This document shows, piece by piece, positions 5,161 through 63,974 of a DNA stretch of 64,000 bases. The position numbers and the translations under genes were made by a program. Origin of the DNA: Acidobacteriota bacterium (GTDB taxonomy: Bacteria; Acidobacteriota; UBA890; WLXD01); NCBI GenBank assembly GCA_965248695.1, contig CBDFKD010000002.1, positions 4,800,001 through 4,864,000 on the forward strand, given 5' to 3'. Each line of letters begins with the position of its first letter. Within the stretch, counting starts at the first letter, position 1. The notes under the pieces were generated by a model. It saw only the letters and a list, made by a program, of their open reading frames with translations. It did no database searches and was not told the DNA's origin.

Positions 5161-6740
5161 CGCCAGGGCCGGGAGATCACGCAGGCGTTGATGCCGCCCA
5201 CTCCCATCGACAGCTTGCCCGCTGCACCGGAGTCTGCCGGGCAACCCTCGTCGAGAACGTAGCGCAAGGGGAGGCTGGCGACGCTGGGGTTCAATTGGTC
5301 GGCGGACAGCGGCGTCGGGTGGATTCGGCCGCCGGCGAGGCCGAGGTGCTGCGCCATCAGCTCCCAGCCCCCGCAGCACGACATGCCGTGGCCGAACGTG
5401 CCCTTTCGCGCCGTAACCACGACCCCGTCGCGCACCAACGCGGCCAGGTTGGTGACCTCCTGGTAGTCGCCGGGTGTCGCCGTGGCGTGGAGGTCCCAGG
5501 TGGAGATTTCGTCGGCTGCTACGCCGGCATCTTCCAGAGCGCGGCGAATCGACTCCTGCGGGCCGTTCTGAGAAGGCGTGATGATGTGGTCTGCGTCCGA
5601 GGTGACCCCGACGCCTAGAAGCTCCAAGCCCAGTGGAGTGAAGCCCTGCCCTTCCATGAAGTCGCGATCCCCGACGATCCACACACACGCTCCACCCGCC
5701 ACATGAGTGCCGCGAAGATCCGTTAGCGGAACCGATGGTTCCCGGTCGGCAGCGAGCACGCGGGCCTTGTAGAAGGTTCCGACGCTCAACATGTGGGGTG
5801 GCGGGTCGGCCGCGCCTACGACGACGGCTTTGGCCTCGCCCGTTCGTATGGCCCGCATCGCCAGATGCAGGCTGACGCCGAAGCCCGAGCACGCTGCCAC
5901 CGGCGCGTACGCCGCCCCGGTGATCCGGCCCAGCATCGACACCTGAGCGGCCGGCGTATTGTGGATGTTCCACAGCAGGTTGGCCGACACGGAAAGCCAC
6001 GGCGGTGTCGGACATCCGACCTCCTTCTGGAGGCGCTCGGTTTCCGTGCGCTTGCGGCGCAGCAATCGCAGCTTTCCCTGTTCGACCTCTCCCTGGACCC
6101 CTTGAGCCTCGATCGTATTCAGACACTCCAGGAAAGCGGTCAGACCGTCTGAGCGCCCGGACCAGAAGTGGTCCCACGCTTCCGTGGCGTCGTCGCGTTC
6201 GTCGGCGTCGGCGAACTCCTCCGGCGAGGCCGGCACACTCCACTGGCGACGTAGCTCGACGCGGCGCTCGGATCCGGCCGATCCGAAGGCCGCCCGGTCA
6301 GCGTTGCGCTCCGGCTGGGCCCAGAAGCGATTCCACCGTCTCCGCGCTCGATACAAGTCCACCGAGCAGTCGTAGTACGTCGGCAGGTCACCCAAGCCCG
6401 TGGACACCAGCACCTGGGCTTCGGCGCCCAACGACTGTAGCGCCGCCTCGATCCCCGGGTTCTGTCGGAGCGACTGAATGAATGCCCCGATCGCGTACTG
6501 GGTCGTGAAGCCCATCTTCTTGCGCAGCTGCGGGAACTTCGTGGGTGCGAAACGCTCGTCGATCCAGCCTCGATAGGTCTGCAGATCGAAATCGGGGATT
6601 CCGGCAAGGAAGTTCGACTGGTCGGCATCGGAGAACGGCGACAGCCAGCTATCAGACTTCTCGAGGTTGGCGGCGAACGCCTCCACATCGGCCGAGCGTG
6701 GCGCCACCACACCCCATCCGTAGATTCCGATGCGAGTCAT
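5148..6740 (-). CDS. Beta-ketoacyl synthase (FabF/FabB-like) with ~110-aa insertion
   Basis: GWGVVAP, STGLGD, catalytic AACSG, SDADHIITP, HATATPGD, KGTFGHGM and SMGVGGINA. Confidence 0.85.
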   Translation of the reverse strand: MTRIGIYGWGVVAPRSADVEAFAANLEKSDSWLSPFSDADQSNFLAGIPDFDLQTYRGWIDERFAPTKFPQLRKKMGFTTQYAIGAFIQSLRQNPGIEAALQSLGAEAQVLVSTGLGDLPTYYDCSVDLYRARRRWNRFWAQPERNADRAAFGSAGSERRVELRRQWSVPASPEEFADADERDDATEAWDHFWSGRSDGLTAFLECLNTIEAQGVQGEVEQGKLRLLRRKRTETERLQKEVGCPTPPWLSVSANLLWNIHNTPAAQVSMLGRITGAAYAPVAACSGFGVSLHLAMRAIRTGEAKAVVVGAADPPPHMLSVGTFYKARVLAADREPSVPLTDLRGTHVAGGACVWIVGDRDFMEGQGFTPLGLELLGVGVTSDADHIITPSQNGPQESIRRALEDAGVAADEISTWDLHATATPGDYQEVTNLAALVRDGVVVTARKGTFGHGMSCCGGWELMAQHLGLAGGRIHPTPLSADQLNPSVASLPLRYVLDEGCPADSGAAGKLSMGVGGINACVISRPWRDRS

Positions 6741-6757
6741 CTGTTACAGGCCACTAG
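6733..6757 (+). repeat. CAGGCCACTAG motif copy A
   Basis: CGAGTCATCTG-TTA-CAGGCCACTAG. Contains the ketosynthase start codon on the - strand. Confidence 0.85.
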
Positions 6758-6814
6758 AGGGGATCCGAGGAGTCGGGATGTAACCCTTTGAGCAAATGTA
6801 GGGTACGGGAAGGG

Positions 6815-7225
6815 TTACTGCGGGAGGCCCGGGCTGGCGGACGATTGCGAGGCCCGGCGGTCGTCATCGTCCGTGTCCGCCTCGTCGTTCGGAGGCAGCG
6901 GGGGGAGAAGGTAAACCTTCTCGCCGGGTTTGACCAGACCGAGGCGCTCGCGGGCTTCCCGCTCGATTGTCAATGGCTCGTCGCGGAGCAACCGAATGCG
7001 TGCCCGCAGGGCATCGTTGTCGTGCTCGGCGGCGGCGATCTCTTGCTGCAGTCGCTCTACATCCGCGCGGGCACGATACACGCCGACCATACCTCCGGCG
7101 CCGAAAAAACTGTACGCAACGCCCCAGATGCCGAATCCGGCCGCAACCCAGACGAAGCGGCGGTTCGGTGCAGTGCCGCGCTTTCGCTGTGGCTTCGGAA
7201 TGAGAATCCGAATGCCCATGACCAC
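6815..7225 (-). CDS. ftsB: Septum formation initiator FtsB/DivIC family
   Basis: TM helix, coiled coil and IEREARERLGLVKPGE, immediately downstream of eno. Confidence 0.85.
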   Translation of the reverse strand: MVMGIRILIPKPQRKRGTAPNRRFVWVAAGFGIWGVAYSFFGAGGMVGVYRARADVERLQQEIAAAEHDNDALRARIRLLRDEPLTIEREARERLGLVKPGEKVYLLPPLPPNDEADTDDDDRRASQSSASPGLPQ

Positions 7226-7228
7226 CCG

Positions 7229-9744
<2,516 letters not shown>

Positions 9745-9753: not shown

Positions 9754-9928
9754 CTAGCAGGCCGTGGTGAAAGTGTGGTGGGTCTGGCGACAGGGTTTTG
9801 CGAGGCGCAGGCCAGGAGAGAGGAGGAGGCGATGGTAACTCCATCGTTGACGACAAACGACGCAGCATGCGCGCGCAACCCCAACTCGCCGTAACCAGAC
9901 CCACCACACTTTCACCACGGCCTGCTAG
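9754..9928. mobile_element. 175-bp MITE-like element with 34-bp perfect terminal inverted repeats ending in CTAG
   Basis: CTAGCAGGCCGTGGTGAAAGTGTGGTGGGTCTGG (9754-9787) is the exact reverse complement of 9895-9928. Central hairpin CGATGG-taact-CCATCG. No transposase. Confidence 0.85.
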
Positions 9929-10037
9929 ACGGAGCACGTGTCGCGGTCAAAACACCGACTCTGGCGCTGACGAGTGGGTCGGAGAGTTCCCAGGCCCGCC
10001 GCTTGACGGGTGTCGTCGCGCGGGCGAGCCTCGCCGG

Positions 10038-27584: not shown

Positions 27585-27718
27585 GTCGTCGAGTTTAGCA
27601 GCCGCGCTCGTGCCGACTTCGGCAGGGTTCCGAGCAGCGGGGTAACATAGCCGCCCGCCGCGCCGGTTGTGGCGGCCCGCGCCATGATCTCACCCGCAAA
27701 TCCCATCTGCGATATGCA

Positions 27719-27743
27719 TCGATCATCTGTCCCAGGCCACTAG
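27719..27743 (+). repeat. CAGGCCACTAG motif copy B
   Basis: TCGATCATCTG-TCC-CAGGCCACTAG, 7 bp before the nhaC-like ATG. 19/21 identical to copy A. Confidence 0.85.
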
Positions 27744-45606: not shown

Positions 45607-46395
45607 GTGCGCCGGCCGGCGCCGGGCCATCGGACGGTCGCATCTCTGCTGCTGACGGCGATTGCCGGGTGCGGGGGTGGCGCGGCGGGTCCAACGGCAA
45701 CCCCGACCGCCTTGCCACCGGCGACAGATCTCACCGTTGAGGCGTTGGCGGAGATTACCAACGGGTTTCGCGCTCGTTTGCTGCGCATCCACACGGATAT
45801 CGAGGCCTGTCACCGAGACCGTTGCGCCGGTCTGCGAGGGACGTTGTTGGTGGCGCGGAGTGGCGCGCTGGCGGCGCACTTGGCCGACGGCGGGGACAGC
45901 GTGGAGATCGCCAGCGACGGTCGTCGACTGGCGCTGCGAGTGGGGGACACTAGCGAGCCCGAGGTGCACGACGCCCTCGACTTGCCACCAGGGGCTCCTT
46001 CGCGGCCGTATCTCGCGTTGGCCCCGCTCGATCTTGCCGACGCGCTGTTGCCGCGAATCGTCGCGTCGGCAGCGGTCGATTCGGGATCAGCGGTCCTCGA
46101 GCGACGTCCCGGCGAGGTGATCCTGATGTTGCTGGCGACCGGCTCTCCGCGGTTGGTCCGACGGATCGTCTTCGACCCGGTAGCCCACGAGATTCGACGC
46201 ATCGAGCGCTTCGATGTAGGCGGCTCGTTACGTCTGGTCATCACCTACGGGGGCTGGGATCCACGACGCGGCCCGCCGGGCGGGCCCGTCAGGCTCACAT
46301 GGCCGCAGCGCGACGCCTCCCTCGACCTGGCGATTCGCTCCGTCGAGATCGAGCCTCCGGTCGATCAGACGTCGTTCCGGCTGCGAACTCCGTAG
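45607..46395 (+). CDS. Hypothetical lipoprotein (possibly LolA/LolB-like fold)
   Basis: Lipobox IAG-C after a hydrophobic stretch, with a beta-rich C-terminus ending VDQTSFRL. Confidence 0.55.
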   Translation: MRRPAPGHRTVASLLLTAIAGCGGGAAGPTATPTALPPATDLTVEALAEITNGFRARLLRIHTDIEACHRDRCAGLRGTLLVARSGALAAHLADGGDSVEIASDGRRLALRVGDTSEPEVHDALDLPPGAPSRPYLALAPLDLADALLPRIVASAAVDSGSAVLERRPGEVILMLLATGSPRLVRRIVFDPVAHEIRRIERFDVGGSLRLVITYGGWDPRRGPPGGPVRLTWPQRDASLDLAIRSVEIEPPVDQTSFRLRTP

Positions 46396-46418
46396 CGCTT
46401 GCTGCTACAGGCCACTAG
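46394..46418 (+). repeat. CAGGCCACTAG motif copy C
   Basis: TGCTG-CTA-CAGGCCACTAG between convergent genes. The CTAG supplies the TAG stop of the - strand gene. Confidence 0.85.
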
Positions 46419-48255: not shown

Positions 48256-48332
48256 GAGGCCTGGGGCGGCGGTGTACCGTCGTTCCGACCCTAGTACTAG
48301 CGCCGCCACGTGACCGCACACCGGGAGAGGCT

Positions 48333-50823
<2,491 letters not shown>

Positions 50824-50829: not shown

Positions 50830-51657
50830 ATGGGCGCGGTGACGCTCGGCGATGGCGTGGTCTTCGGCGACGGTGAGCTCGGGCTGATCGCCGGTCCCTG
50901 CGTGATCGAGAGCCGGGACCACTGCCTCCGTATGGCCGAAGCCGTTGCCGAGATTAGCCGCCGGGCGCGGTTGCCGTGCGTGTTCAAGGCCTCCTACTAC
51001 AAGGCCAATCGCACGTCGGTGTCGACTTACCGTGGCCCCGGTGCTGACGAGGGGCTGCGCATTCTCGCGGACGTTCGCGACGCTGTCGGCCTGCCGGTCC
51101 TGACGGACGTGCACGAACCGGCGCAGGCAGCTGCTGCGGCGGAGTGTGTCGACGTCTTGCAGATTCCGGCCTTCCTGTGCCGCCAGACAGACCTGATTCT
51201 GGCGGCTGCCGCAACCGGCCGGCCGGTCAACCTGAAGAAGGGACAATTTCTGGCGCCGTGGGACATGGGTCAGGTGGTCGAGAAGGCGGCCTCTACCGGC
51301 AACGAAGCGTTGCTGGTCACCGAGCGCGGCACGTCGTTCGGCTACAACAATCTCGTCGTCGACTTCAAGGGCCTGCGTTTTCTCGCCGGATTCGGCTATC
51401 CGGTCGTGCTCGACGTTACCCATAGCCTGCAGCTGCCCGCCGGCCAGGGGGAAAGCACCGGCGGACAGCCCGAGTTCGCCGAGCCGCTCGCAGCCGCAGG
51501 TGTGGCTGCTGGAGTCGATGTCCTGTTCATCGAGGTGCACGACGATCCGCCCGCGGCGCTCAGCGACGCCAGCACCCAGCTGCCGCTAGAACGCCTCGAA
51601 CCGCTGATCGAGAAGCTCATCAGGATCCGAGCCGCGACTTCCGCCACGGCCGACTAA
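50830..51657 (+). CDS. kdsA: Kdo-8-phosphate synthase
   Basis: AGPCVIES, KANRTS, PAFLCRQTDL and KKGQF. Confidence 0.97.
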   Translation: MGAVTLGDGVVFGDGELGLIAGPCVIESRDHCLRMAEAVAEISRRARLPCVFKASYYKANRTSVSTYRGPGADEGLRILADVRDAVGLPVLTDVHEPAQAAAAAECVDVLQIPAFLCRQTDLILAAAATGRPVNLKKGQFLAPWDMGQVVEKAASTGNEALLVTERGTSFGYNNLVVDFKGLRFLAGFGYPVVLDVTHSLQLPAGQGESTGGQPEFAEPLAAAGVAAGVDVLFIEVHDDPPAALSDASTQLPLERLEPLIEKLIRIRAATSATAD

Positions 51658-51667
51658 GGCGAGGGAA

Positions 51668-52660
51668 ATGGCCGCCGAACGAACCGATACAGCTCGCCGC
51701 CGCGCCGGGTTGGAGATGGCGCGCGAGGTCCTGCAAACCGAGGCGCAGGCACTGCAGAAGCTCGCCGAGCGCCTCGACGAGGAAGCGCTGGGGCAGGCGT
51801 TGGATCGGCTGCGTGCCTGCGACGCCCGTATCGTCTGCTCGGGGATGGGCAAGTCGGGCATTATCGCCAGGAAGCTGGCCGCGACACTTGCCTCGACCGG
51901 GAGCCCGGCGTTCTTCCTGCACCCGGCCGAGGCTGGGCACGGCGACCTGGGCATGCTGGTCGACGGCGACGTGTTCTTCGCGCTCAGTCACAGTGGCGAC
52001 ACCGGCGAGATCGTTGCGTTGTTGCCGGCGATCCGGCGCTTGAAAGTGGAATTGATCGCCATGGTCGGCGATATCGATTCGACCATCGCGCGCGAGGCGG
52101 ACGTCGTCTTACACGTCGACGTCGATGTGGAGGCATGTCCACTAGGGCTCGCCCCGACCGCGTCGACCACTGCCGCTCTAGCGCTCGGCGACGCGTTGGC
52201 GATGGCCCTCCTGAAGGAGCGCGGGTTCGGGGCCGAGGAGTTCGCCCGCTTCCACCCGAAGGGATCTCTGGGGCGTCGACTGCTACGCGTGCGCACTGTG
52301 ATGCACACCGGTGATCAGGTGCCGCGCGTTGGTGAGACCGCTTCGCTTGCGGAGGCGATCGAGCAGATGACCGCCAAGGGTCTGGGGATGACGCTGGTAG
52401 AGTCGGTCGACGGTAAGTTCGCCGGCATCATCACCGATGGAGACATTCGCCGGCTCGCCCAGAGCGGTATCGACACCGACCAGTCGGCGCGCAGCTGCAT
52501 GACGCCAGATCCGGTGTTCGTCGCCGCCGACGCGCTGGCGACGGAGGCGTTGCGGTTGCTCGAGGAGAGCCGCATCACTGTGCTGATCGTCGATGATGGC
52601 GATCGACGCGCCCTCGGCGTCGTCCATCTGCACGATCTGTGGCGAACGCAGATGGTCTAA
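51668..52660 (+). CDS. kdsD: Arabinose-5-phosphate isomerase (SIS + 2 CBS)
   Basis: GMGKSG, HPAEAGHGDLG, APTASTT, FHP.GSLG and TDGDIRR. Confidence 0.96.
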   Translation: MAAERTDTARRRAGLEMAREVLQTEAQALQKLAERLDEEALGQALDRLRACDARIVCSGMGKSGIIARKLAATLASTGSPAFFLHPAEAGHGDLGMLVDGDVFFALSHSGDTGEIVALLPAIRRLKVELIAMVGDIDSTIAREADVVLHVDVDVEACPLGLAPTASTTAALALGDALAMALLKERGFGAEEFARFHPKGSLGRRLLRVRTVMHTGDQVPRVGETASLAEAIEQMTAKGLGMTLVESVDGKFAGIITDGDIRRLAQSGIDTDQSARSCMTPDPVFVAADALATEALRLLEESRITVLIVDDGDRRALGVVHLHDLWRTQMV

Positions 52661-52681
52661 TCCCCTGTTACAGGCCACTAA
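52657..52681 (+). repeat. CAGGCCACTAG motif copy D (one mismatch, CTAA)
   Basis: CTAA-TCCCCTGTTACAGGCCA-CTAA. The first CTAA contains the kdsD stop. Confidence 0.85.
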
Positions 52682-52715
52682 TGATCCCGCCGCGAGTCCT
52701 ATCTGCGGCCCTATC

Positions 52716-52740
52716 GATTCCCCTTGTTGCAGGCCACTAG
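52716..52740 (+). repeat. CAGGCCACTAG motif copy E
   Basis: GATTCCCCTTG-TTG-CAGGCCACTAG, 59 bp after copy D and 13 bp before the kdsC ATG. Confidence 0.85.
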
Positions 52741-52753
52741 AAGGCTGCGAGAA

Positions 52754-53332
52754 ATGCAGCGACTCTCCAGATCGGACTACGAAGATCGTTTGCGGCGGCT
52801 GCGGCTGTTGATTACCGATGTTGACGGGGTGCTCACCGACGGATCGATCGTCTATGCGGGTGCCGACAGCGAGGCCAAAGTGTTCAACGTTCGCGACGGC
52901 AGCGCGGTGAAGATTGCCTCGGTGATCGATCTCCGGATCGCGGTGGTGACGGCGCGCGAGTCGGCCGCCGTCGGTCGGCGGTTCTCCGAGCTGCCGGTTT
53001 TCGAGCTGCGCCAGGGCGCTTTCGACAAGGTCGGCGCCTGCCTGGAGATGCAGGCGAAGCTCGGGCTGGAAGCGTCGCAGGTGGCCTTTCTGGGGGACGA
53101 CCTGGTTGACCTTGCCGTCATGCGCCACGTGGGAACAGGAATCGCGGTCGCCGACGCGCACCCGCGTATTCTCGAGGCCGCCGACCGGGTCACAGCCGCG
53201 CTCGGCGGACGGGGCGCCCTCCGCGAGGTGGTCGACGACGTGGTGGTCGCGCGAGATCTCTGGGACAGCGTCGAGAACGACTATCTGCGCCGTCAGTCGG
53301 TTGCGCCGGCAGACGAGCCGGATGCACCGTGA
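52754..53332 (+). CDS. kdsC: Kdo-8-phosphate phosphatase (HAD)
   Basis: DVDGVLTDG, FNVRDG, GDDLVD and GGRGALRE. Confidence 0.95.
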   Translation: MQRLSRSDYEDRLRRLRLLITDVDGVLTDGSIVYAGADSEAKVFNVRDGSAVKIASVIDLRIAVVTARESAAVGRRFSELPVFELRQGAFDKVGACLEMQAKLGLEASQVAFLGDDLVDLAVMRHVGTGIAVADAHPRILEAADRVTAALGGRGALREVVDDVVVARDLWDSVENDYLRRQSVAPADEPDAP

Positions 53333-53370
53333 GCCGGTGAGATCGGACCCATGTCCGGGGGCTACGACGC

Positions 53371-54543
53371 ATGCAGGGTGACTGGCCGCTGACACTCGGC
53401 GCTGCACTGGCCCTACTGGCTGTCGGCGCACTGTTGGGTGAGCTGTGGGCACGATTGCGCGCTCCGGGCATGCCGTTGCCAAGTCCGCGGGCGCGGCCGC
53501 ACTATTTGCTCGGCCTCAACTTCCTGGTTTCGCACCAGCCCGATCAGGCGATCCGTGAGCTGTCTCAGGCTGTGCGACAGGAGACCGAAGCACTCGAGGC
53601 GTACCTCGCGCTCGGCAACCTGTTGCGGGAAAGCGGGCAGTCGGAGCGCGCTATCGACGTTCATCGCAGCCTGCTACACCGGCCGAACCAGTCTCGGTGG
53701 GAGCACACACAGGTGCTGTTCTCGCTGGCGATGGACTTCAAGCGCGCCGGGCTGATCGACCGGGCCGCCAGCACTTTCCAGGAAGTCGTTACGGCGGAGC
53801 CTGACAACCTTGCGGCATTGATGGCGCTACAGCAGATCGCCGAGGAGAGCGGTCGCTGGGAGGAGGCGCAACACTTCCAGCAGCGCATCCAGACCGTGTC
53901 ACGCGGCGCTGAGCCCGATCTCGGTCCGGCGCTGCAGACGGAGTGGGGCCGGGCGGTCAGCGGCCACGATCCGGCATCGGCAGCGGGCCATTTTCGCGCT
54001 GCCCTCGATCTGCGTCCGGACTACGCCCCGGCGCGTATCGGCCTCGCCACCTGCCTGCTGGACGAGGGCAAGGCAGCAGCGGCCCGCGACCACCTGGAGC
54101 AGGCGATTCATACGGGCCCGCCGTGGGCGCTTGCGGCGATGGCCGTCCTGAGGCGTACTTGCGAGGCGCTCGGCGACGAGGGGGTTCTGGAGGCGTCGTG
54201 CAACACGATCCTCGAACGCGACCCTCGCGCCTGGCGGGCGTGGCTCGAGATCGCGCGCCTGCGAACCGATCGGGGCGAGTTCACGGCGGCGCGCGAGGCG
54301 CTGCGTGAGGCGCTTGCCGAGCGTCCGGGCTCGCTCGCGGTGCAGCGTCAGCTATGGGAGTTGTTGCGCTTGGAAGGGGAGGGGATCGACCAGTTCGTCG
54401 AACTGCTCGATGAGGCTCTCGACGATGCCCGTTTGCTCGATCCGTACGTATGCTTCCGGTGTCAGTTCAAGAGCGCTGAGCTGTTCGCGCGCTGCCCGCA
54501 CTGTCACGCATGGGAGACGATGGGCGAGGAGCGGCAGGATTGA
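53371..54543 (+). CDS. lapB: LPS assembly protein B (TPR + rubredoxin-like)
   Basis: N-terminal TM, GLNFL...QPDQAI, LGNLLR..G..ERAI..H and C-terminal CFRC...CPHC..W. Confidence 0.9.
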   Translation: MQGDWPLTLGAALALLAVGALLGELWARLRAPGMPLPSPRARPHYLLGLNFLVSHQPDQAIRELSQAVRQETEALEAYLALGNLLRESGQSERAIDVHRSLLHRPNQSRWEHTQVLFSLAMDFKRAGLIDRAASTFQEVVTAEPDNLAALMALQQIAEESGRWEEAQHFQQRIQTVSRGAEPDLGPALQTEWGRAVSGHDPASAAGHFRAALDLRPDYAPARIGLATCLLDEGKAAAARDHLEQAIHTGPPWALAAMAVLRRTCEALGDEGVLEASCNTILERDPRAWRAWLEIARLRTDRGEFTAAREALREALAERPGSLAVQRQLWELLRLEGEGIDQFVELLDEALDDARLLDPYVCFRCQFKSAELFARCPHCHAWETMGEERQD

Positions 54544-54554
54544 GCAACGCGCCA

Positions 54555-54929
54555 ATGTTCGCCGTGCGTGTCGAGACGCGATTCCGGGCTCGCCATCGCA
54601 TCGGGCCCGGAGGGGAAGAGATCGCCGAGCACGAGCACGACTGGCGGGTCGCGGTGCAGGCCTCATCCGCAGAACTGGATCAGATATCGATCGTCGTCGA
54701 CTTCCGCAAGCTGCGCGACCAGACAGAGACGATCCTTGGTCCGCTCCGCGGCACCGTGCTCGAGGAACACGCCGAGCTCGGAGCCTCGGCGGCGACCGCC
54801 GAGGCAGTGGCGCGCTGGCTGTTGCTGGCGCTGACGCGCGAGAACCAGGGCGAGGCGTATCGCATTACCTCGGTCGAGGTCGGATGCGATGCCGGCGTCG
54901 AGTACATTCTCAACGCACCGGCAGGCTGA
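54555..54929 (+). CDS. queD: 6-pyruvoyl/6-carboxy-tetrahydropterin synthase family (QueD-like)
   Basis: F.ARH, HEH.W.V, VVDF..L and TAE. Confidence 0.75.
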   Translation: MFAVRVETRFRARHRIGPGGEEIAEHEHDWRVAVQASSAELDQISIVVDFRKLRDQTETILGPLRGTVLEEHAELGASAATAEAVARWLLLALTRENQGEAYRITSVEVGCDAGVEYILNAPAG

Positions 54930-55548
54930 TGCCGGCGGCGACGTTGTCGAGATCAGCTCTCAGTGTGCCGAGAAGCTCTTGTACACGAGCTGCCGTAGCC
55001 TCGAGATCTCCGCTGTTGTCGATCGTGTAGTCGGCAACCGCCGCCTTCTCGATCTCGGGCATCTGTGCTGCGATCCGGCGACGTACGTCATCCTCGGCCA
55101 GCCCGCGCCCGGCTAGCCGCTTCACTCGCGTCTCGACCGGGGCCAGGACTACGACCAGGCGCTGGTAGCGCGCCGTTCCTCCCGTCTCGACCAGCAACGC
55201 CGCCTCGGTGACGGCGATTCCGCGCTCGACGCGCCAGTCGGCGATGCGTTCACTCTCGAGACCTGGGATACGAGGATGAATGATCGCCTCCAGCCGACGA
55301 CGGGCGATCTCGTCGGCGAACACGATGCTTGCCAGCGCCGCACGGTCGATCGCTCCATCGGCGGCGCGGACGCCGGCCCCGAACAGCGCCACCACCTGGT
55401 CGTTGACGTCGGTACCGGGTGTGAGCAGGTCGCGCACCAACTGGTCAGCATCGATGAGGAGGCAGCCGCCGGCCTCCAGCATCGTTCCGACGGTGCTCTT
55501 GCCGGCGCCGATGTTGCCGGTCAGCCCGACCTTCAGGATGGCCCTCAC
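54910..55548 (-). CDS. coaE: Dephospho-CoA kinase
   Basis: GLTGNIGAGKST, IDAD, LEAIIHP, ALLVE and RIAAQM. Confidence 0.96.
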   Translation of the reverse strand: MRAILKVGLTGNIGAGKSTVGTMLEAGGCLLIDADQLVRDLLTPGTDVNDQVVALFGAGVRAADGAIDRAALASIVFADEIARRRLEAIIHPRIPGLESERIADWRVERGIAVTEAALLVETGGTARYQRLVVVLAPVETRVKRLAGRGLAEDDVRRRIAAQMPEIEKAAVADYTIDNSGDLEATAARVQELLGTLRADLDNVAAGISLPVR

Positions 55549-55564
55549 GGCCGGTTGCAGGCCA

Positions 55565-55568
<4 letters not shown>
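55544..55568 (+). repeat. CAGGCCACTAG motif copy F
   Basis: CTCACGGCCGG-TTG-CAGGCCACTAG spans the whole gap from the folD stop (CTAG) to the coaE start. Confidence 0.85.
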
Positions 55569-56485
<917 letters not shown>

Positions 56486-56530
56486 GAACGTGCTCCTCGG
56501 GGTTGCAAGGTACCCCGATAGATGTTGGGG

Positions 56531-56554
56531 CTAGAGGCTGCGACAGGCCACTAG
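56531..56554 (+). repeat. CAGGCCACTAG motif copy G
   Basis: CTAGAGGCTG-CGA-CAGGCCACTAG, a near-perfect palindrome flanked by CTAG. The right CTAG is the stop of the last BMC-P gene. Confidence 0.85.
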
Positions 56555-56823
56555 GAGCCCCAGTCGATTTGATCGATGATTCCGACGATCGCGGCGTTCG
56601 CGGGCGCCAGGTCGATTCCCATCGCCTGGCTTGCGGAGCGTCCCTCGATGACCACGAGGACCGTCTCGCCGGCTCCGGCGCCGACGCTGTCGACGGCCAA
56701 GAGCTCGGCGCCCGACTCGTCTCCGCCGCGCGCCAGCGGCTGCACCAGCAGCAGCTTGCTGCCGTGGAACTTGGCGTGTTTCTGCGTCGACACGACGTTG
56801 CCGACCACCCGCGCCACGATCAT
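56551..56823 (-). CDS. Microcompartment vertex pentamer BMC-P (EutN/CcmL family)
   Basis: ARVVGNVVSTQK, KLLLVQP, AVDSVGAG.GE and AAIVGIID. Confidence 0.95.
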   Translation of the reverse strand: MIVARVVGNVVSTQKHAKFHGSKLLLVQPLARGGDESGAELLAVDSVGAGAGETVLVVIEGRSASQAMGIDLAPANAAIVGIIDQIDWGS

Positions 56824-57089
56824 GGGGCGTACGACACGGTATCGACGATACCTACGATCGACACATCTGCCGGCACCGAAGCCGGTAGGAAAGCAAAGGA
56901 TGCCTCGCGGCCGGTGACGTAGAACACGGTTTCGCCGACCCCCGACCCGACCGCGTCGACCGCCACCATGGGCCGTCCGTGGGGTGCTCCCTGCGGCGTT
57001 ATCGGCTGTACCAGGAGCAGCTTCGTGCCGCGCAGAGTGTCGTCCTTGACGGTACAGACAACCGTGCCGATTACCCGCGCCATGTCCAT
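56820..57089 (-). CDS. Microcompartment vertex pentamer BMC-P (EutN/CcmL family)
   Basis: ARVIGTVVCTVKD, AVDAVGSG.GE, GREA and D.SIVGIVD. Confidence 0.95.
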   Translation of the reverse strand: MDMARVIGTVVCTVKDDTLRGTKLLLVQPITPQGAPHGRPMVAVDAVGSGVGETVFYVTGREASFAFLPASVPADVSIVGIVDTVSYAP

Positions 57090-57097
57090 CGAGCGGC

Positions 57098-57124
57098 CTC
57101 GTGTCCTGTCGCGCTAGTGGCTAG
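57098..57124 (-). repeat. Degenerate reverse copy of the motif plus CTAG-TGG-CTAG
   Basis: CTCGTGTCCTGTCGC matches the reverse complement of copy G at 13/15. It is followed by CTAGTGGCTAG at a BMC-P stop codon. Confidence 0.5.
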
Positions 57125-57396
57125 CTGCCGTCGTCGACGTGCGCCTCGTCGACGATACCGACGATGGCAGTGTCGACCGGGCAGTTGGCGAGCCCTTCAG
57201 CCATGCGGGCGGATGACCCGCGAACGCACAGCACGGTCTCACGATACCCGGCATCGACCGTGTCCAGGGCGACGTGATAGCCGTCTTCGTCGTTACCGTC
57301 GGGGTCGACCGGGACAACGATCAGGAGTCGACTCCCCGCGAGCTTCGGGTCCTTGCAGGTCGCTACCACCGTGCCTGTCACGCGCGCAAGAAACAC
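57121..57396 (-). CDS. Microcompartment vertex pentamer BMC-P (EutN/CcmL family)
   Basis: ARVTGTVVATCKD, ALDTVDAG, GSSAR and PVDTAIVGIVD. Confidence 0.95.
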   Translation of the reverse strand: MFLARVTGTVVATCKDPKLAGSRLLIVVPVDPDGNDEDGYHVALDTVDAGYRETVLCVRGSSARMAEGLANCPVDTAIVGIVDEAHVDDGS

Positions 57397-57416
57397 GACG
57401 TCTTCTCTCCGATCCC

Positions 57417-57707
57417 TCAGTCACTCTTGCCGATCGGCAAGCAGTCCTCGAGGCTGGTGTGCGGACGCGGGATCACGTGAACCGAAATCAGCTCACCCAC
57501 GCGTCGAGCAGCAGCGGCTCCGGCGTCGGTGGCAGATTTTACCGCCGCGACATCGCCGCGGACGATCGCTGTCACTAGCCCGCCACCGACTTTCTCGTAG
57601 CCGATCACCGTCACCTTGGCTGCTTTTACCATCGCATCGGATGCCTCGACCATTCCGACGAAGCCCCGGGTCTCGATCATTCCGAGGGCCTCTCCGTAAT
57701 CTCCCAT
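57417..57707 (-). CDS. Microcompartment shell hexamer BMC-H (EutM/PduA-like)
   Basis: [27 protein letters not shown] and HVIPRPH. Confidence 0.97.
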
Positions 57708-57751
57708 CGACTGCTTCTCCTCATGCGGGCCGCTTGCCGAGACGGCGGGTT

Positions 57752-58516
57752 TCAGTGGATCGCGCGTAGCGCGTCGGCGATCAGACCGACCAGTTCATCC
57801 TGAGTCAGCGTAATGGTGCCCGATTCATCGGTTGAGGGGTAGCAGATCGCCGGAACGGGCGATCCACCTGCAGCCTCGCGCAAGGCCGACAGCTCATCGA
57901 TCTGCGCTCGACTGAAGTGACGCGGCCCCCCGAGTAGATGGGCGACCAGCGCGATCTGCGCGAAGTGTTCCAGCTGCACCATGCGTTCCTCGGCCTCCTC
58001 CAGCGAGGTGCCGACGGCGACGGCTCCATGGTTGGCCAGCAACACGACATTGAAGTCCCGGATCGGTCCTCGCACCGAATCAGCCAACTCGGGCGTTGAT
58101 GGTCTTCCGTAGGGCGCCACCGGTACACAGCCGAGGAAGGTAATGACCTCGGCGAGCGCCGCCGGCGGTTGCTTGCCGGCGACCGCGTAGCCGGTGGCGA
58201 TCGGCGGGTGCGCGTGCACCACGGCCTGCGCTTCAGGCCGCTCCGCATAGATCGCCAGGTGCAGCTTCAGCTCCGACGACGGGGCACCGCCGCTCAGAGG
58301 TTCTCCGGCGAGGTCGACAAGGACGAGCTCGGTGTCCCGCAATCGTCCCTTGTGCGCTCCCGTGGCGGTGGTCAGCAATCGATCCGGCCCGATCCGGACG
58401 CTGAGGTTGCCTTCGTAGGACGCCAGGATACGGCGCTCGTAGAGCCGTCGCCCGGCCGCCACGATGGCTGCCGCGACGTCGGCTTGGCTGGACAACGGGG
58501 CACCGGTCTCGGGCAC
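57752..58516 (-). CDS. Class II aldolase (fuculose-phosphate aldolase-like) with putative C-terminal encapsulation peptide
   Basis: [19 protein letters not shown] and LANHG. Tail [17 protein letters not shown] looks like an amphipathic helix. Confidence 0.92.
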
Positions 58517-58649
58517 GGGTCCTCGTGGAGGGCGGGGCTGTCGGAGTTTTTCTGACCCACGACACTAACAGGTCGCGTTTGCCTGCGATCGGGGGAGCGA
58601 CTACCGTTGCGCGCCGGGAGATCACCCGCAATCACCGGACCCGCAATCC

Positions 58650-59684
58650 ATGTCCCGTCGCCTCCAGCTTGTCGTCGTCTCACTGCTCGCAGTCGTTCTC
58701 GTCTGGCTGTTTCTGCGGCAAGCCGACCTGCGGCAGGTATGGAGCGCGTTGCGCAATATCGATGCGGTTTGGTTGCTGGCGTCGCTCGGGGCGATCCTCC
58801 TGACCGTACTGCCGCGCGCCTGGCGCTGGCGGCAGCTGCTGTCACCGCTCGGGACCGTCGCCATGCGGCCGCTGGTCGACTGCACGCTCATGGGTTGGAC
58901 GGTCACCGTCGTCCTGCCCGGGAGACTGGGCGAGATCGTTCGTCCGGCGCTGCTGGCACGGCGGACACCGATTCGCGTCAGCGCCGCGATCGGATCCGTC
59001 GTATTGGAGCGTCTCTTCGATGTCGTCGCGGTGGTGCTGTACTTGGGAATCTACCTGGCTGTGTTCCCCCCGCCCCCGCGTCTCGAGGGCGACGGCGCCG
59101 CGGTGTTCGAGGTGATGCGTCTGATCGGCACCCTGGGTCTCGCGGGTGTCGTGTTGGCCGGAGTGGTCGCGGTAGCCGCGAGCCGCAGCGTGAAGCTGCA
59201 CGACGGCATCGACAACCTGGCGGCGTCGTGGTTGCCGGCAAAGGCAGCGTCGATTGTGGATTCCTTTCTCGACGGCATGTCGGGCCTGAAGAGTCCCTGG
59301 CTGGTGGTGCGCATCATCGGTAGCTCGATGCTGCTGTGGGGCATCATCCATCTGATGTACGTGGTGCAGTTCTGGGCCTTCGGTATCGATCTGCCAGCCT
59401 ACGCTTCCATTCCCCTCGTGGCCCTGCTGGTCGTGGGTGTGATCGTACCCACCCCGGCCGCCGTTGGCGCGTTCCACAAGGCGGCGCAGATAGGGTTGGT
59501 GACCCTCTTCGGGATCGACAACGACGTGGCGGTCGCCTATGCGATCGTCAGCCATACGGTGGGTTTCCTGCCGCTCGGCCTCCTTGGGGCGCTATTGCTC
59601 GTGCGCGAGGGATTGACGCTGGGCGCGCTGCGGCGCATTGGGGAAGCGTCGGCGGCGCCGGCCGGAGAGGACCGGGCGCTATAA
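58650..59684 (+). CDS. Lysylphosphatidylglycerol-synthase TM-domain / flippase-like membrane protein (UPF0104)
   Basis: RAWRWRQLL, LPGRLGEIVR, ERLFD and PTPAAVG.FH. Confidence 0.88.
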   Translation: MSRRLQLVVVSLLAVVLVWLFLRQADLRQVWSALRNIDAVWLLASLGAILLTVLPRAWRWRQLLSPLGTVAMRPLVDCTLMGWTVTVVLPGRLGEIVRPALLARRTPIRVSAAIGSVVLERLFDVVAVVLYLGIYLAVFPPPPRLEGDGAAVFEVMRLIGTLGLAGVVLAGVVAVAASRSVKLHDGIDNLAASWLPAKAASIVDSFLDGMSGLKSPWLVVRIIGSSMLLWGIIHLMYVVQFWAFGIDLPAYASIPLVALLVVGVIVPTPAAVGAFHKAAQIGLVTLFGIDNDVAVAYAIVSHTVGFLPLGLLGALLLVREGLTLGALRRIGEASAAPAGEDRAL

Positions 59685-59756
59685 TCCGCCCGACGCTCAC
59701 GATGCGGCGATCCGCGCCGCGTCCATCTGCCCTGCTGTCGGCTTCACGGATTGACG

Positions 59757-60215
59757 ATGAAGTGCCCCTACTGCGGTCACAACAAGGACAAGGTGGTGGA
59801 CTCGCGCGAGGTGCGCGAGGGCAACGTCATACGGCGCCGTCGGGAGTGTTTGGAATGCAGCCGGCGCATGACGACGTATGAGCAGATCGAGGCCGTACCC
59901 ATCGTCGTGGTCAAGAAGGACGGCAGCCGGGAGCGCTTTGATCGGAACAAGTTGCTGTCGGGCATCATGCGAGCGTGTGAGAAGCGCCCGGTGCCCGTGC
60001 AAGAGCTGGAGGCCATCTGCGACCAGGTCGAGACCCGGGCGCAGGAGGGGAGCGGCCGCGAGATCGACTGTCGGGAGATCGGCGAGTTGGTAATGGACCG
60101 CCTCAGAAACCTGGATGAGATCGCTTACGTTCGGTTCGCTTCGGTCTACCGCCAATTCAGGGATGTCAATGCGTTCATGGAGGAGCTCAAGTCCCTCCTC
60201 GACCAGCAAACCTGA
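59757..60215 (+). CDS. nrdR: Transcriptional repressor NrdR
   Basis: MKCPYC, VVDSR, IRRRREC..C, ATP-cone and [10 protein letters not shown]. Confidence 0.97.
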
Positions 60216-61443
60216 GGCGCGCCGCGTCGACTGGCGAAGCCTGGCGCGCCTGCTTGCCGAGGATCCGCTCAGCCGCCTGGCGACGCTTGCCCCCGAGGCG
60301 GCGAACGTGGCGCTGGTCGGAGGGGCTGTCCGCGACACCTTGCTCGGGCGAGCCCCAACTGACCTCGACCTGGTAGTGGAGCAGGGCTTCGACCGCTATC
60401 TCGATGCGATCGAGCTGGCGCGCGGCGCCCGGCCGTCGGATATCGGAGATACGTTCCAGCACACGCACCGCTTCCGCTGGAAGGGTGTGCAAGTCGACAT
60501 CGCCCGCGCCCAGGGCAGCCTCGATGAGGACCTGGGTCGGCGCGATTTCAGCGTCAACGCGCTGGCCCTGCCGCTGGGCCGTGGCCGCGATCCGGAATCC
60601 TCGCTGGTCGATCCGTATGGCGGCCTGGCGGATCTGATCGCCGGGCGCTTGCGGGAGACGACGCCAGGTGTGTTGACGTCGGACCCACTGCGCGCCCTTC
60701 GAGCCGTTCGCTATGCCGCGGAGCTGCCCGGGTTCGGCATCGAGGCGGCGACCGCAGCGGCCATCTCCGCAACCGCCCAGCGGTTGACCGAGGTGGCACC
60801 GGAGCGCGTTCAGACGGAGTGGAGCTTGAACCTCGGCTCGCCCGGATGGCGCCGGGCCTTGCGTATCGGTAGCGATCTGGGCGTCTGCGGACCCAGCCTC
60901 GGCGAGCTTTCCACCAGCACGGCCGTCGATGCCTGGGCGTTGGCAGAGTCCGAGCTCGGTCTCGATGCGCCGCAGCTGCGCGGGCGGTTGGGGGCATTGA
61001 TTCTCGATATGGCCGCGGGGGCCAGCGTCGAGGCAGTGGTGGCCCGTCTGCTAGACGGTCGGTGGCCGCCGGCACAGGTTCAGAGCGCCGATCGAGTGGC
61101 TCGCTGGGCGAGCACTTGTGCTGGTGCCACGCCCGCCCAGCTGGCGACCTGGGCACTGCGTGATCCTGGCGCGGCTGCCGACGCAAGCGCACTCGCGTCG
61201 CGCCTCGACCCCGCCTCCCCGGCCGACGAGCTGCGGCGCGACGCGCAGCGCTCCGAGGAGGCGCGCTGGGTCACTGGCGACGACCTGATCGCGTGGGGCA
61301 TGCCCGCGGGACCGCCGATGGGCCGCCTGCTCCGCGACCTGGCGCTCGGGCAGATCACGCGGCGGTGGCCGGCGGCTGCGGATGCCCGGGAATGGGCGCG
61401 CGGGCAGCTGGAACAGGGCCGCCAGGGCCGGGGCGCCAGGTGA
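60163..61443 (+). CDS. CCA-adding enzyme / poly(A) polymerase-family nucleotidyltransferase (start uncertain)
   Basis: [35 protein letters not shown] and PERV..E. Confidence 0.85.
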
Positions 61444-62465
61444 GCGGGCAGCGCGCGGACCGTATCGGCGAGCTCGCGCTCGTTGAGCGCATCCGCTCGG
61501 CGCTCGATGTGCCGATCCCGGGGCTCGAAGTGGGGCCGGGCGACGATGCGGCAGTGATCGACATGCCATCGCGACGCCTGGTGTTGACAACGGATCGTCA
61601 GACGGAAGGCACGCACTTTCGCCGCTCGTGGCTGTCGCCCAGGGCGCTGGGTCGTCGGGCGCTCGCCGTTTGTGTGAGCGATCTCGCTGCGATGGGCGCC
61701 ACACCGGCGTGGGCGTTATGCGCTCTCGAGCTTCCGGGCAATCTCGAGGTCGACTGGATCGACGAGCTTGTTGGCGGTCTGCGGGACGGCGGACGCGAGC
61801 TCGGATGCCCCACGATCGGCGGTGACGTTACCGTCACGGCGCGTCGGGTCGGGCTGTGTCTGTGCGCCGGCGGGACGCTTGCTGACGGCGTGGCGCCGCT
61901 CCTGCGAGATCGGGCCAGGGCCGGGGATGACTGCTGGTTGATCGGCCACGTCGGGATGGCCGCTGCCGGTCGATTGCTGCTCGAGGGTGGCCTTACCGAG
62001 CCGCTCGATTCGTTGGCGCGCCGCGCCGTCGATGCGTATCGGTCTCCTACACCGCCGCTGGCGTTCAGCAGCCACGTAGCGGCATATCGGCTCGTCGGTG
62101 CGATGATGGATGTCAGCGACGGTCTGGGTCTCGATCTGACCCGAATGTGCAAAGCGTCCGAGGTCGGCGTGGTGCTGGACGGTGACGCCCTGGTGGAGCC
62201 TGATGTGCTCGAACTGGCGAGCCGAGTCGGCAGCTCGCCCCTCGAGCTGGCCACTGGCGGAGGAGACGACTACGCCCTCATCTGCTCTGTGGGTGCGGGC
62301 GACCAGGCAGCGCTCGCTGCCGCCTCGGAGAGCTTCGAGCTGGAGGCCCGGTGCATCGGCGAGTTCGTCAGCGCCGCCGAAGGAATGACGGTCTGTGTCG
62401 GCGCCGCCAGAGAGCCTCTGAGGCAGTCCGGCTGGGACCCGTTCAGCGGCGGTGGGCCGACGTGA
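61440..62465 (+). CDS. thiL: Thiamine-monophosphate kinase
   Basis: GDDAA, TTD...GTHF, SDLAAMGA, GGD, DVSDGL and GGDDY. Confidence 0.94.
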   Translation: MSGQRADRIGELALVERIRSALDVPIPGLEVGPGDDAAVIDMPSRRLVLTTDRQTEGTHFRRSWLSPRALGRRALAVCVSDLAAMGATPAWALCALELPGNLEVDWIDELVGGLRDGGRELGCPTIGGDVTVTARRVGLCLCAGGTLADGVAPLLRDRARAGDDCWLIGHVGMAAAGRLLLEGGLTEPLDSLARRAVDAYRSPTPPLAFSSHVAAYRLVGAMMDVSDGLGLDLTRMCKASEVGVVLDGDALVEPDVLELASRVGSSPLELATGGGDDYALICSVGAGDQAALAAASESFELEARCIGEFVSAAEGMTVCVGAAREPLRQSGWDPFSGGGPT

Positions 62466-63580
62466 TCTCTTTCGCCGTCGAACACCAGGACGCCGCCTCA
62501 TCGGCACGCACCGGTCGGCTACGAACCCCGCACGGTAGCGTGGCGACACCGGCGTTCATGCCAGTGGGAACGTACGGTGCGGTCAAAGGCATGCCCGCCG
62601 AGCAGCTAGAGAGCCTCGGCGTGCAGATCGTGTTGGCCAACGCCTACCACCTCTGGGAGCGACCCGGTGCCGAGATTATCCATGAGGTGGGGGGCCTGCA
62701 TCGATTCATGGGATGGACGGCACCGATACTCACGGACAGCGGCGGTTACCAGGTGATGTCGCTGGCCGATCGGCGCCGCATAGACGATGACGGGGTTACC
62801 TTCCGGTCACCGCTGGACGGACAGTACCGACGGCTTACGCCGGAGCTCGTGGTCGAGATCCAGGCGCTGCTGGGCGTCGACGTGGCGATGGTGCTCGACG
62901 AGTGCATCGCCAGCCCGTCAGAGCACGCCGAGGCGGCCCGCGCTGTTCGCCGCAGTCAGCTGTGGGCCGAGCGCAGTCGGCCGCTCGCGTCGGCGCTGCC
63001 TGGCGGGTTATTCGGTATCGTTCAGGGAGGCATTTATGCCGAGCTGCGCGAGGCCCACGCGCATGCGCTCGTGGCGCTGGAGTTCGACGGGTATGCCATC
63101 GGAGGGCTCGCGGTCGGCGAGTCGAAGCCGCAGACCTGGACGGCGCTCAGCGCCGCCACCAGCGTGTTGCCGGTCGACAGGCCGCGTTACGTCATGGGTA
63201 TGGGGACCCCTGACGATCTGGTCGAAGCGGTGGCGCATGGCGTCGACCTGTTCGATTGCGTCATGCCCACCCGCCACGCGCGCAACGGCGTGGCGTTCAC
63301 CAGTGATGGCGTCGTGACGGTGCGCCACGCACGCCACGCGAACGATGACGGGCCGCTCGACGCTGCATGCAAGTGTCCAACCTGTGAGCGGTATACGCGC
63401 GCCTATCTGCGCCACTTGAAGTTGCGTCGGGAGATGCTCGGGGGCGTGCTGATGACGATCCACAACCTATGGCACTACCTTGACACCATGAGGCGCATCC
63501 GGCACGCTATCGCCTCCGGCGCGTTCGCGGAAATGCGCGCCGCGACGTCGTGTTGCGGCCGCTCGAACGGCGACGGTTAG
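62462..63580 (+). CDS. tgt: tRNA-guanine transglycosylase
   Basis: TPAFMPVGT, TDSGGYQ, GIVQGG, GGLAVGE, FDCVMPTR and C.C..C. Confidence 0.97.
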   Translation: MISFAVEHQDAASSARTGRLRTPHGSVATPAFMPVGTYGAVKGMPAEQLESLGVQIVLANAYHLWERPGAEIIHEVGGLHRFMGWTAPILTDSGGYQVMSLADRRRIDDDGVTFRSPLDGQYRRLTPELVVEIQALLGVDVAMVLDECIASPSEHAEAARAVRRSQLWAERSRPLASALPGGLFGIVQGGIYAELREAHAHALVALEFDGYAIGGLAVGESKPQTWTALSAATSVLPVDRPRYVMGMGTPDDLVEAVAHGVDLFDCVMPTRHARNGVAFTSDGVVTVRHARHANDDGPLDAACKCPTCERYTRAYLRHLKLRREMLGGVLMTIHNLWHYLDTMRRIRHAIASGAFAEMRAATSCCGRSNGDG

Positions 63581-63668
63581 CGCCCGTTTCGAGACGCCGA
63601 CCCCCACGCCTGGCCGGAGGTCATTCCGGCTCTCCACGGGAGAGAGTTCGCTGCCTTCCCTACTGCTG

Positions 63669-63953
63669 ATGGCCACCGCGCCGGGTCAGAATCCGATCAC
63701 CGGCCTGATCCCCTTCGTTGCGATGGTGCTCATCTTCTACTTCCTGTTGATCGCTCCCGTGCGCAAGCGTCAGCGCCAACACGACGAGCTCCTGAGCAAC
63801 CTGAAGAACGGAGACAAGGTGGTTACCAACGGCGGCATCTACGGCACCGTGGTGGGCATCCAGGACGACCGTTTCCGGCTCAAGATCGCCGACCAGGTAA
63901 AGATCGACGTCACCAAGCAGAGCATTACGGGCCTTGCCGAGGGCTCGGACTAG
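63669..63953 (+). CDS. yajC: Preprotein translocase subunit YajC
   Basis: IFYFLLI.P, L..GDKVVTNGGIYG, and it follows tgt. Confidence 0.95.
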   Translation: MATAPGQNPITGLIPFVAMVLIFYFLLIAPVRKRQRQHDELLSNLKNGDKVVTNGGIYGTVVGIQDDRFRLKIADQVKIDVTKQSITGLAEGSD

Positions 63954-63974
63954 TCCTCGGTTACAGGCCACTAG
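63950..63974 (+). repeat. CAGGCCACTAG motif copy H
   Basis: CTAG-TCCTCGGTTACAGGCCA-CTAG. The left CTAG is the yajC stop. Confidence 0.85.

Follow-up and report, generated by a model that had tools for sequence, protein, structure and literature searches.

Probable remnants of an IS630-like miniature transposable element at gene borders in an Acidobacteriota genome

Copies of an 11-mer in the window

We analyzed a stretch of 64,000 nucleotides from an Acidobacteriota bacterium (hereafter, the window; C2:4800001-4864000, where C2 is contig CBDFKD010000002.1 of assembly GCA_965248695.1), in which the 11-mer CAGGCCACTAG recurs at the borders of functionally unrelated genes. The genome is designated G000 and was assembled into two contigs (5.89 Mb, 65% G+C). 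An earlier reading, made from the sequence alone (the sequence-only reading), had listed eight copies in the window, and all eight were found again on the + strand: exact matches at 6747, 27733, 46408, 52730, 55558, 56544, and 63964, and the variant CAGGCCACTAA at 52671. When the window was shuffled with its dinucleotides preserved and at most one mismatch was allowed, the mean number of matches was 0.68, the largest was 3, and none of 100 shuffles reached 8. The genome-wide scan proposed in the sequence-only reading identified 111 exact copies (57 forward and 54 reverse), which led to a longer repeat, a miniature inverted-repeat transposable element (MITE). We consider it likely that the 11-mer is the tip of a non-coding hairpin MITE of the IS630/Tc1-mariner kind, and that the copies in the window are the leftovers of such elements after deletions.

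The position of all copies at gene borders was confirmed with open reading frames and Pfam. The neighboring genes encode a ketoacyl synthase, a Na+/H+ antiporter, a CDP-alcohol phosphatidyltransferase, KdsD, a HAD hydrolase in the place of KdsC, CoaE, FolD, YajC, and two EutN/BMC-P proteins. As had been claimed, five copies use a stop codon as a flank (those of the CDP-alcohol phosphatidyltransferase gene, kdsD, folD, the EutN/BMC-P gene, and yajC), and three copies lie between direct repeats: two CTAAs separated by 17 bases at 52657, and two CTAGs separated by 16 bases at 56531 and by 17 bases at 63950. The unit length of about 25 bp given earlier applies to the units of 24–26 bp and does not apply to the copies at 27733 and 52730, which are the tips of MITE fragments of 67 bp and ∼57 bp. 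In total, the window contains two one-ended fragments (57–67 bp), four units of 24–26 bp, and two bare tips (Table 1). All of its termini are remnants, and a full MITE copy is absent from it. The density is also high, with seven exact termini per 64 kb against ∼1.2 expected from the genome mean, i.e., approximately sixfold.

Table 1. Remnants carrying the 11-mer or its variant in the window, with the gene borders at which they lie
Position	Strand	Feature	Gene border	Basis
6737..6757	+	Bare right MITE tip, TCATCTGTTACAGGCCACTAG	First four bases common with the start region (CAT at 6738–6740) of the − strand ketoacyl-synthase gene	Sequence match, Pfam
27677..27743	+	One-ended 67-bp MITE fragment, right terminus kept, rest deleted	Ends 7 bases before the ATG (27751) of the Na+/H+ antiporter gene	nhmmer, relatives
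46393..46418	+	26-bp unit, TAG...CAGGCCACTAG	Between the stops of two convergent genes; CTA at 46415–46417 is the stop of the − strand CDP-alcohol phosphatidyltransferase gene	Sequence, Pfam, relatives
52657..52681	+	25-bp unit, CTAA-TCCCCTGTTACAGGCCA-CTAA	Begins in the stop (TAA at 52658–52660) of kdsD (SIS+CBS)	Sequence, Pfam
52682..52740	+	One-ended ∼57-bp fragment, right end of the second subfamily (inner repeat ...ctatcgattc...)	Ends ∼14 bases before the kdsC ATG	Comparison with full copies
55553..55568	+	Bare tip, GGTTGCAGGCCACTAG	Between the folD stop (CTA at 55565–55567) and the coaE start	Sequence, Pfam
56531..56554	+	24-bp unit, CTAG-AGGCTGCGACAGGCCA-CTAG	Right CTA (56551–56553) is the stop of the EutN/BMC-P gene	Sequence, Pfam
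63950..63974	+	25-bp unit, CTAG-TCCTCGGTTACAGGCCA-CTAG	Begins in the yajC stop (TAG at 63951–63953), 27 bases before secD	Sequence, Pfam

The orthologous junctions of relatives were then compared, as the sequence-only reading had suggested, and single CTAGs were found in sister genomes. The closest relative, G003, lacks exactly 16–17 of the bases of the tip at 6737 and 14 bases of the tip at 55553. Near the former site, G002 has a full copy of ∼290 bp at a CTAG that is empty in G004. The 67-bp fragment (nhmmer match C2:4827677-4827743, profile positions 1–67, E = 1.4e-14) is missing at the same place in G002, G004, and G007, the last being a member of the same family but of another genus. At the 46408 junction, G003 has a decayed counterpart (caggccacgag) plus an adjacent, separate full copy of 290 bp, G004 has a 25-bp palindrome of another end type, and G002 has a single CTAG. 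At the 52657 site, the relatives have a single CTAG followed by an unrelated spacer. The fragment that follows this unit in the window gave no nhmmer match at E ≤ 1e-3, and positions 52682–52742 are 83–87% identical to MITE ends elsewhere in G002–G004. At 56531, five relatives are 20 bases shorter and have a single four-base site (gCTAc in G003 and G001, gCTAa in G002 and G004, and gTCAg in G007). Similarly, the site of the 63950 unit is a single CTAG in G003 and G001 and a CTAA in G004, 21 bases shorter, and in G002 it holds a 22-base insert of its own, of the CAGGACAC end type.

The units are not assembly collapses of longer repeats. Logan contigs from four runs of one sample, possibly the source sample, cover 45900–50057 and 51169–64000 with zero differences. 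Among the contigs listed for these four runs, no joint indicating a longer allele occurred at the window sites; contigs drop rare variants, so rare longer alleles could escape this comparison.

The parent element, its ends, and its target

When the 111 copies were oriented and stacked, conservation extended inward over 50 bases or more on one side (...gataggcaacgttcatctgtta-CAGGCCACTAG), whereas it stopped abruptly after CTAG, which identifies the 11-mer as the end of a longer repeat. More precisely, CAGGCCACTAG is made up of the final eight bases of the element, CAGGCCAC, followed by the TA duplicated from the target and then by the G next to it. The search for longer MITEs with the same ends, also proposed from sequence, was successful. 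Left and right termini paired at distances of 277–279 bp (15 pairs), 289–291 bp (8 pairs), 183–190 bp (4 pairs), and 551–566 bp (5 pairs), and an alignment of 29 full-length copies resolved two subfamilies, one of 278 bp and one of 291/279 bp. Both have inverted ends of ∼34 bp (CTAGTGGCCTGTAACAGATGAACGTTGCCTATCG), the inner parts of which changed together at both ends. The counts of successive 11-mers along the consensus were 77–111 over the first 21 bases, at both ends, and ∼40 for inner single-copy words, which indicates approximately 40 long copies and approximately 30 surplus tips. The 278-nt strand folds into one long hairpin (−91.9 kcal/mol, z = −10), and none of 200 shuffles was as good. 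The idea that the 11-mer marks an ultra-short element in its own right was abandoned, because it is the terminus of a 278/291-bp MITE of which the window has remnants only. This body is too short to encode a transposase. The MITE is present in 20 of the 41 genomes searched, among them each of the four others of the genus; matches in the sister family are weaker.

Two longer forms were considered as autonomous copies and rejected. The 551–566-bp forms (C2:5094743-5095307, 733546-734109, 4669338-4669903, and 4883272-4883822) look like copies with a MITE nested at about position 84. In C2:5094743-5095307, the only one of these copies that was read, a MITE of a second family is nested at an internal CTAG. 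The 564-bp form contains no long open reading frame of note. A pair of termini 1,505 bp apart at C2:3763947 encloses an ordinary gene of 440 amino acids, which is not a transposase. The second family is likewise flanked by CTAG, is ∼280 bp long, and has the ends CTAGCAGGCCGTGGTGGAAGTGTGGCGGGC... (e.g., C2:5130691-5130986). BLAST gave 69 genomic matches to it, of which 29 extend over 260 bp or more; in a separate comparison, G000 and G002 each had more than 40 matches. The window contains one internally deleted copy of it at 9754–9932.

Searches for a transposase in G000, a genome that is 96% complete, gave no match to DDE_3 (PF13358), DDE_Tnp_1 (PF01609), or Y1_Tnp (PF01797), and a tblastn search of the same genome with four IS630-family transposases from relatives also gave no match. 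The number of DDE_3 matches was 0 in G003, 6 in G002, 1 in G004, 1 (partial) in G001, and 43 in G007. We delimited the insertion sequences of the relatives by copy-to-copy comparison. The ends of the DDE_3 (IS630-family) elements read CTAGTCTCCTGTAACAG... in G007, CTAGTGTCCTGAGTCAG... in G002 and G004, and CTAGTGTCCTGTCCCAG... in G013, and the IS630-family insertion sequences of relatives end in the same CTAGTNNCCTGNNNCAG as the MITE. DDE_3 element ends of relatives agree with the first 17 bases of the MITE in 15 places. Public genomes from several phyla contain relatives of the G007 transposase with similar ends, the best of which (locus L113) has one mismatch in 16. An exact partner element was not found among 30 DDE_3 loci of the order and 80 loci of public genomes, which yielded related ends only. 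Judged by their sequence, the ends of the MITE belong to this IS630 subgroup, and the absence of a partner transposase from its own genome bears on present mobility, not on kinship.

Two side observations concern these transposases. In G007, the 43 DDE_3 matches represent two insertion sequences of ∼1.2 kb in many near-identical copies, which looks like a recent burst. In G001 (C192:11823-12344), a truncated IS630-family transposase gene runs up to its own CTAG terminus, and that same CTAG is where a MITE copy starts.

We also analyzed the target site of the element. Of the 133 termini, 111 have a C immediately before TAGTGGCCTG, compared with a C content of ∼33%. In some copies, the left flank is TTAG or GTAG and the right one is CTAG; as the two sides of a single copy can thus differ in their outer bases, the duplication is limited to TA, with the outer bases supplied by the target. 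Sites with and without insertions agree with this: G002 has CTAG-MITE-CTAG where G004 has ggctcCTAGtcgctc, with a single CTAG, and G003 has a 25-bp unit plus another short element where G000 has one CTAG. The TA is thus duplicated within CTAG, and the empty sites in sister genomes are single CTAGs. ISY100, a member of the IS630 family, duplicates TA, and its transposase cuts precisely at the 3′ ends and, on the 5′ side, 2 nt within the element (PMC2170065). A preference of IS630 for CTAG is cited in the reference list of the same paper. Our results support the sequence-only reading on this point, which had suggested an element of the IS630 kind landing at TA within CTAG. An IS5-type family that duplicates three or four bases (CTAG or TAG) would account for the CTAG on both sides of most copies. 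However, the copies with TTAG or GTAG on the left are as expected when only TA is duplicated, the genome has no DDE_Tnp_1 match, and the ends match those of DDE_3 elements, so that this origin is scarcely credible.

The MITE inserts at TA, mostly inside CTAG. With G as its first base and C as its last, it rebuilds CTAG on both sides, and a TAG stop on either strand is restored; the suggestion that such insertions are harmless at stop codons is therefore borne out. TAG stops survive in this way, and surviving insertions pile up at gene ends. CTAG is approximately four times rarer in the genome than base composition predicts (4,485 observed, 18,976 expected). In a crude gene call, 869 CTAGs were gene stops, and 52 of the 133 termini abut such a stop. 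The gene-border position is explained by the occurrence of CTAG at stops and probably by the loss of insertions inside genes.

These comparisons also bear on the second proposal of the sequence-only reading, a domesticated site of REP-like (repetitive extragenic palindromic) or protein-binding type. Here, the motif would be an RNA hairpin, a terminator, or a protein-binding site kept for its function at operon junctions. Copies do lie in tiny spacers between operon genes, a perfect 25-bp copy outside the window folds well as RNA (−17.1 kcal/mol, z = −5.2), and bare tips lean to one strand according to GC skew (see below), as some host words do. However, the copies at 56531, 63950, 6747, 27733, and 55558 are missing in the closest relatives, with no conservation between the species of the genus, and homology extends into the MITE for variable lengths. 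The palindrome described earlier also proved weaker than claimed: the left arms are poor, and when six short window units were folded as RNA (z = −2.4 to +0.9), none clearly outperformed its shuffles. The inner CTG of the supposed left arm is part of a small palindrome, CTGT-T-ACAG, within the element's own end. With sites that vary among close relatives, window units most of which do not fold, and no Y1/RAYT match in the genome, we regard a conserved host function as very improbable.

Collapsed units and one-ended remnants

The short units form a class of remarkably uniform length. In G000, with at most two mismatches per arm, 17 units are exactly 25 bp long, and every other length between 22 and 80 bp is represented at most four times. 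True palindromes, CTAGTGGCCTG-TTA-CAGGCCACTAG, occur outside the window. Of 41 genomes, 6 contain the exact 25-bp pattern CTAGTNNCCTGNNNCAGGNNACTAG, whereas none contains the reversed control. The central triplet follows the resident end of each lineage: TAA/TTA occurs with GTGGCCTG-TAA-CAG, AGT/ACT with GTGTCCTG-AGT-CAG, and TCC/GGA with GTGTCCTG-TCC-CAG. Bases 6–14 of every such end read CTG-NNN-CAG, so that the inverted ends share a short direct identity, and joining there gives a unit of exactly 19 bp. This is the structure seen: 8 + 3 + 8 bases form a 19-bp palindrome that is enclosed by two TAs and measures 25 bp when both CTAGs are included. The 25-bp units look like collapsed long copies, and this sharply discrete class looks new.

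We propose that the remnants arose in two ways. In symmetric decay, the interior would be lost between the CTG-NNN-CAG words at bases 6–14 of each end, leaving the 19-bp palindrome. This could occur during gap repair after excision, if strands resynthesized from the two ends annealed at their first self-complementary word, or by replication slippage across the hairpin. We rejected the classical excision footprint of Tc1/mariner elements, because 5′ cuts 2 nt inside the element leave few bases, whereas the units keep 8 + 3 + 8. In asymmetric decay, a deletion would run from inside one end through the element to just past the other end, and joining at 4–6 bases of chance identity would leave a bare tip or a one-ended fragment. 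Junction identities were observed at two places. First, G002 has CTAG-TGGCCTGT-AACAGGGA where G001, G003, and G000 have TATAG-AACAGGGA, which indicates an insertion at TA and then a loss of everything from the AACAG of the near end to the AACAG of the far flank. Second, at 27677, GCGCC is present both in the flank and inside the MITE. The tip at 6737–6757 may be read as a further microhomology join, with ATGA (TCAT) common to the element's end and the gene start. In a Tc1/mariner element, an internal deletion at 6–8 bp of microhomology has been ascribed to abortive gap repair (PMC3814204). Of the possibilities raised by the sequence-only reading, it is that of scars that our data support for the short copies.

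Alternatively, the 19-bp units (25 bp with their CTAGs) could themselves be mobile, as the shortest non-autonomous elements, with an IS630-family transposase using the outer 8–9 bases of each end. They are flanked by TA, and close relatives differ in having or lacking them, with empty sites that are clean single CTAGs. Both G002 and G004 have tandem units at one CTAG, two loci of G000 have the same odd left arm, and identical units occur at several loci of G004. However, identical perfect units are also expected from repeated collapse at a fixed junction. The ISY100 transposase protects the whole 24-bp end (PMC2170065), so arms of 8 bases would lack its site, and two ends only 3 bases apart would hardly fit one complex. 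In addition, the deletion forms of 183–190, 57, 48, and 39 bp and the one-ended fragments indicate ongoing decay. We therefore consider the mobility of the short units unlikely.

The tandem arrangements are as follows. In G004 (C15:1774448-1774746), a full MITE is followed directly by a 25-bp unit of another end type, and the site is empty in G002. In G002 (C9:1628690-1628736), one unit is common with G004, and G002 has a second unit alongside it. At locus L073, G004 has another truncated repeat at the site, and at locus L071, the flank is a high-copy repeat.

Several observations weigh against decay of an IS630-like MITE as the source of the window copies. No transposase with exactly these ends was found anywhere searched, and G000 and G003 differ by insertions, yet neither has a DDE_3 match. 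Collapse in place was not directly seen: no CTAG was found that carries a full copy in one close relative and a 25-bp unit in another, and the search included four short units from G002 and G004 that were checked against sister genomes. At 46408, the full copy of G003 adjoins a separate old remnant. The 63950 unit (GTCCTCGG...) deviates from the standard left arm in three ways that recur in the unit at C2:131735 (GTCCCCGG...), and it also resembles units of G003 (GTCCCCTG...); such a shared odd left arm would be compatible with an asymmetric short unit having been copied, or with a source element whose two ends differ. At 6747, G003 lacks a TA, so that insertion followed by deletion needs an extra one-base change there. 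Finally, the sixfold crowding of remnants in the window, with no full copy among them, is not accounted for by this origin.

We next analyzed the orientation of one-ended remnants relative to replication. On C2, the GC skew is positive between 3.58 and 5.4 Mb and negative over the rest of the contig, both up to 3.58 Mb and beyond 5.4 Mb; crude gene calls showed no strand bias. A terminus was counted as paired when the opposite 10-mer (at most one mismatch) or the 20-mer end (at most four mismatches) was found within 700 bp. Unpaired termini numbered 9 on the + strand and 25 on the − strand in negative skew, and 17 and 4, respectively, in positive skew (Fisher p = 1e-4). With the window left out, the numbers were 9 and 25 in negative skew and 10 and 4 in positive skew (p = 0.008). 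The paired termini, used as a control, showed no such lean (24 and 16 in negative skew, 14 and 16 in positive skew; p = 0.33), and full copies had no orientation bias. One-ended fragments detected with nhmmer kept the right end in one case and the left end in eight in negative skew, and the right end in five and the left end in two in positive skew (p = 0.035). A lax partner filter gave p = 0.0076, or p = 0.16 without the window, and a crude exact-partner rule gave 54–55 of 85 in the predicted direction, or 46–47 of 77 without the window (p = 0.07–0.11), with 17–18 of 29 for the reversed control word.

In two other genomes, where sequence was fetched around each site, 12 of 17 unpaired termini (G002 contig C8) and 14 of 21 (G004 contig C15) pointed in the predicted direction, i.e., 26 of 38 together (p = 0.034), with 16 of 34 among the paired controls. 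A first hand count on G004 contig C15, with coarse sampling of the skew, had given 14 of 29. For the three genomes, with the window left out, the total is 61 of 86, a figure that overstates independence because the genomes are kin and some sites may be shared.

As is usual for bacterial skew, the G-rich strand was taken as the leading strand, so that the surviving end is the one downstream of the fork. One-ended leftovers thus tend to keep the end downstream of the replication fork, a lean that depends on the filter used and that looks new. The polarity fits deletion during polymerase bypass of a hairpin, whichever strand was being synthesized. According to a review, interrupted palindromes form lagging-strand hairpins in Escherichia coli in each replication cycle (PMC12708500). 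For whole insertion sequences, orientation biases relative to replication have been published, with IS630 described as “mixed,” and these concern insertion, not decay (PMC3971601). A replication-strand word, KOPS- or Chi-like, was rejected for the motif as a whole, because its 111 copies are balanced (57/54) and the paired termini are unbiased. Two further observations were made on C2. In C2:262051-417283, six consecutive unpaired termini run against the lean, all on the + strand in negative skew. Additionally, the sign changes of the skew at ∼3.58 and ∼5.4 Mb would correspond to very unequal arms of ∼1.8 and 4.0 Mb, unless the assembly is rearranged.

Taken together, much of what we describe is ordinary genome debris of a well-known kind, and the discrete typed scar and the lean with replication are its unusual parts. 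We tentatively suggest, with rather less than even confidence, that collapse always takes place at the outermost self-complementary word and gives a lineage-typed 19-bp scar, and that one-ended deletions are polar, with the fork-downstream end surviving. In the open-access literature, we found nothing on this MITE family, the 19-bp collapsed class, or polar MITE decay.

Meaning and comparison with known systems

For annotation, our results mean that both the 11-mer and the 25-bp units ought to be masked as remnants of transposons, rather than interpreted as regulatory sites. In addition, the MITE family is a handy marker of recent insertions between the species of the genus. If the proposed decay is correct, typed scars would allow past visits of transposons to be counted after the element has gone, and the polarity of remnants would allow the direction of replication and the strand of hairpin bypass to be read from genomes of uncultured organisms. 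It would also represent a record, in natural genomes, of strand-asymmetric hairpin bypass, knowledge of which has so far come mainly from plasmids and engineered palindromes.

Among known systems, IS630 of Shigella sonnei and the IS630 family with its MITEs share with the present element the duplication of TA, the preference for TA within CTAG, and the inverted ends. In contrast, G000 and G003 have no transposase of the family, and the MITE described here is one hairpin over its whole length. ISY100 of Synechocystis and the Tc1/mariner elements represent the cut-and-paste family that the ends of the MITE indicate. The Correia elements of Neisseria resemble the MITE in having short inverted repeats, TA duplication, a location at gene ends, and both full and internally deleted forms. 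Their ends are unrelated, and to our knowledge no collapsed 19-bp class is known among them. REP sequences and REPINs, which are moved by RAYTs, are likewise short palindromes between genes; REPs, however, carry a GTAG or CGTC tag and are associated with a Y1 transposase, whereas the units described here have CTAG as their tag and a transposon end as their palindrome, and no Y1_Tnp match was found in the genome. A parallel for the decay itself concerns Ozma of Aedes, from which Gnome, Elf, and Goblin derive by internal deletion between short identical stretches (PMC3814204). As described there, these derivatives are still-mobile MITEs of hundreds of bases, whereas the remnants described here measure 19 bp and are joined at the outermost self-complementary word.

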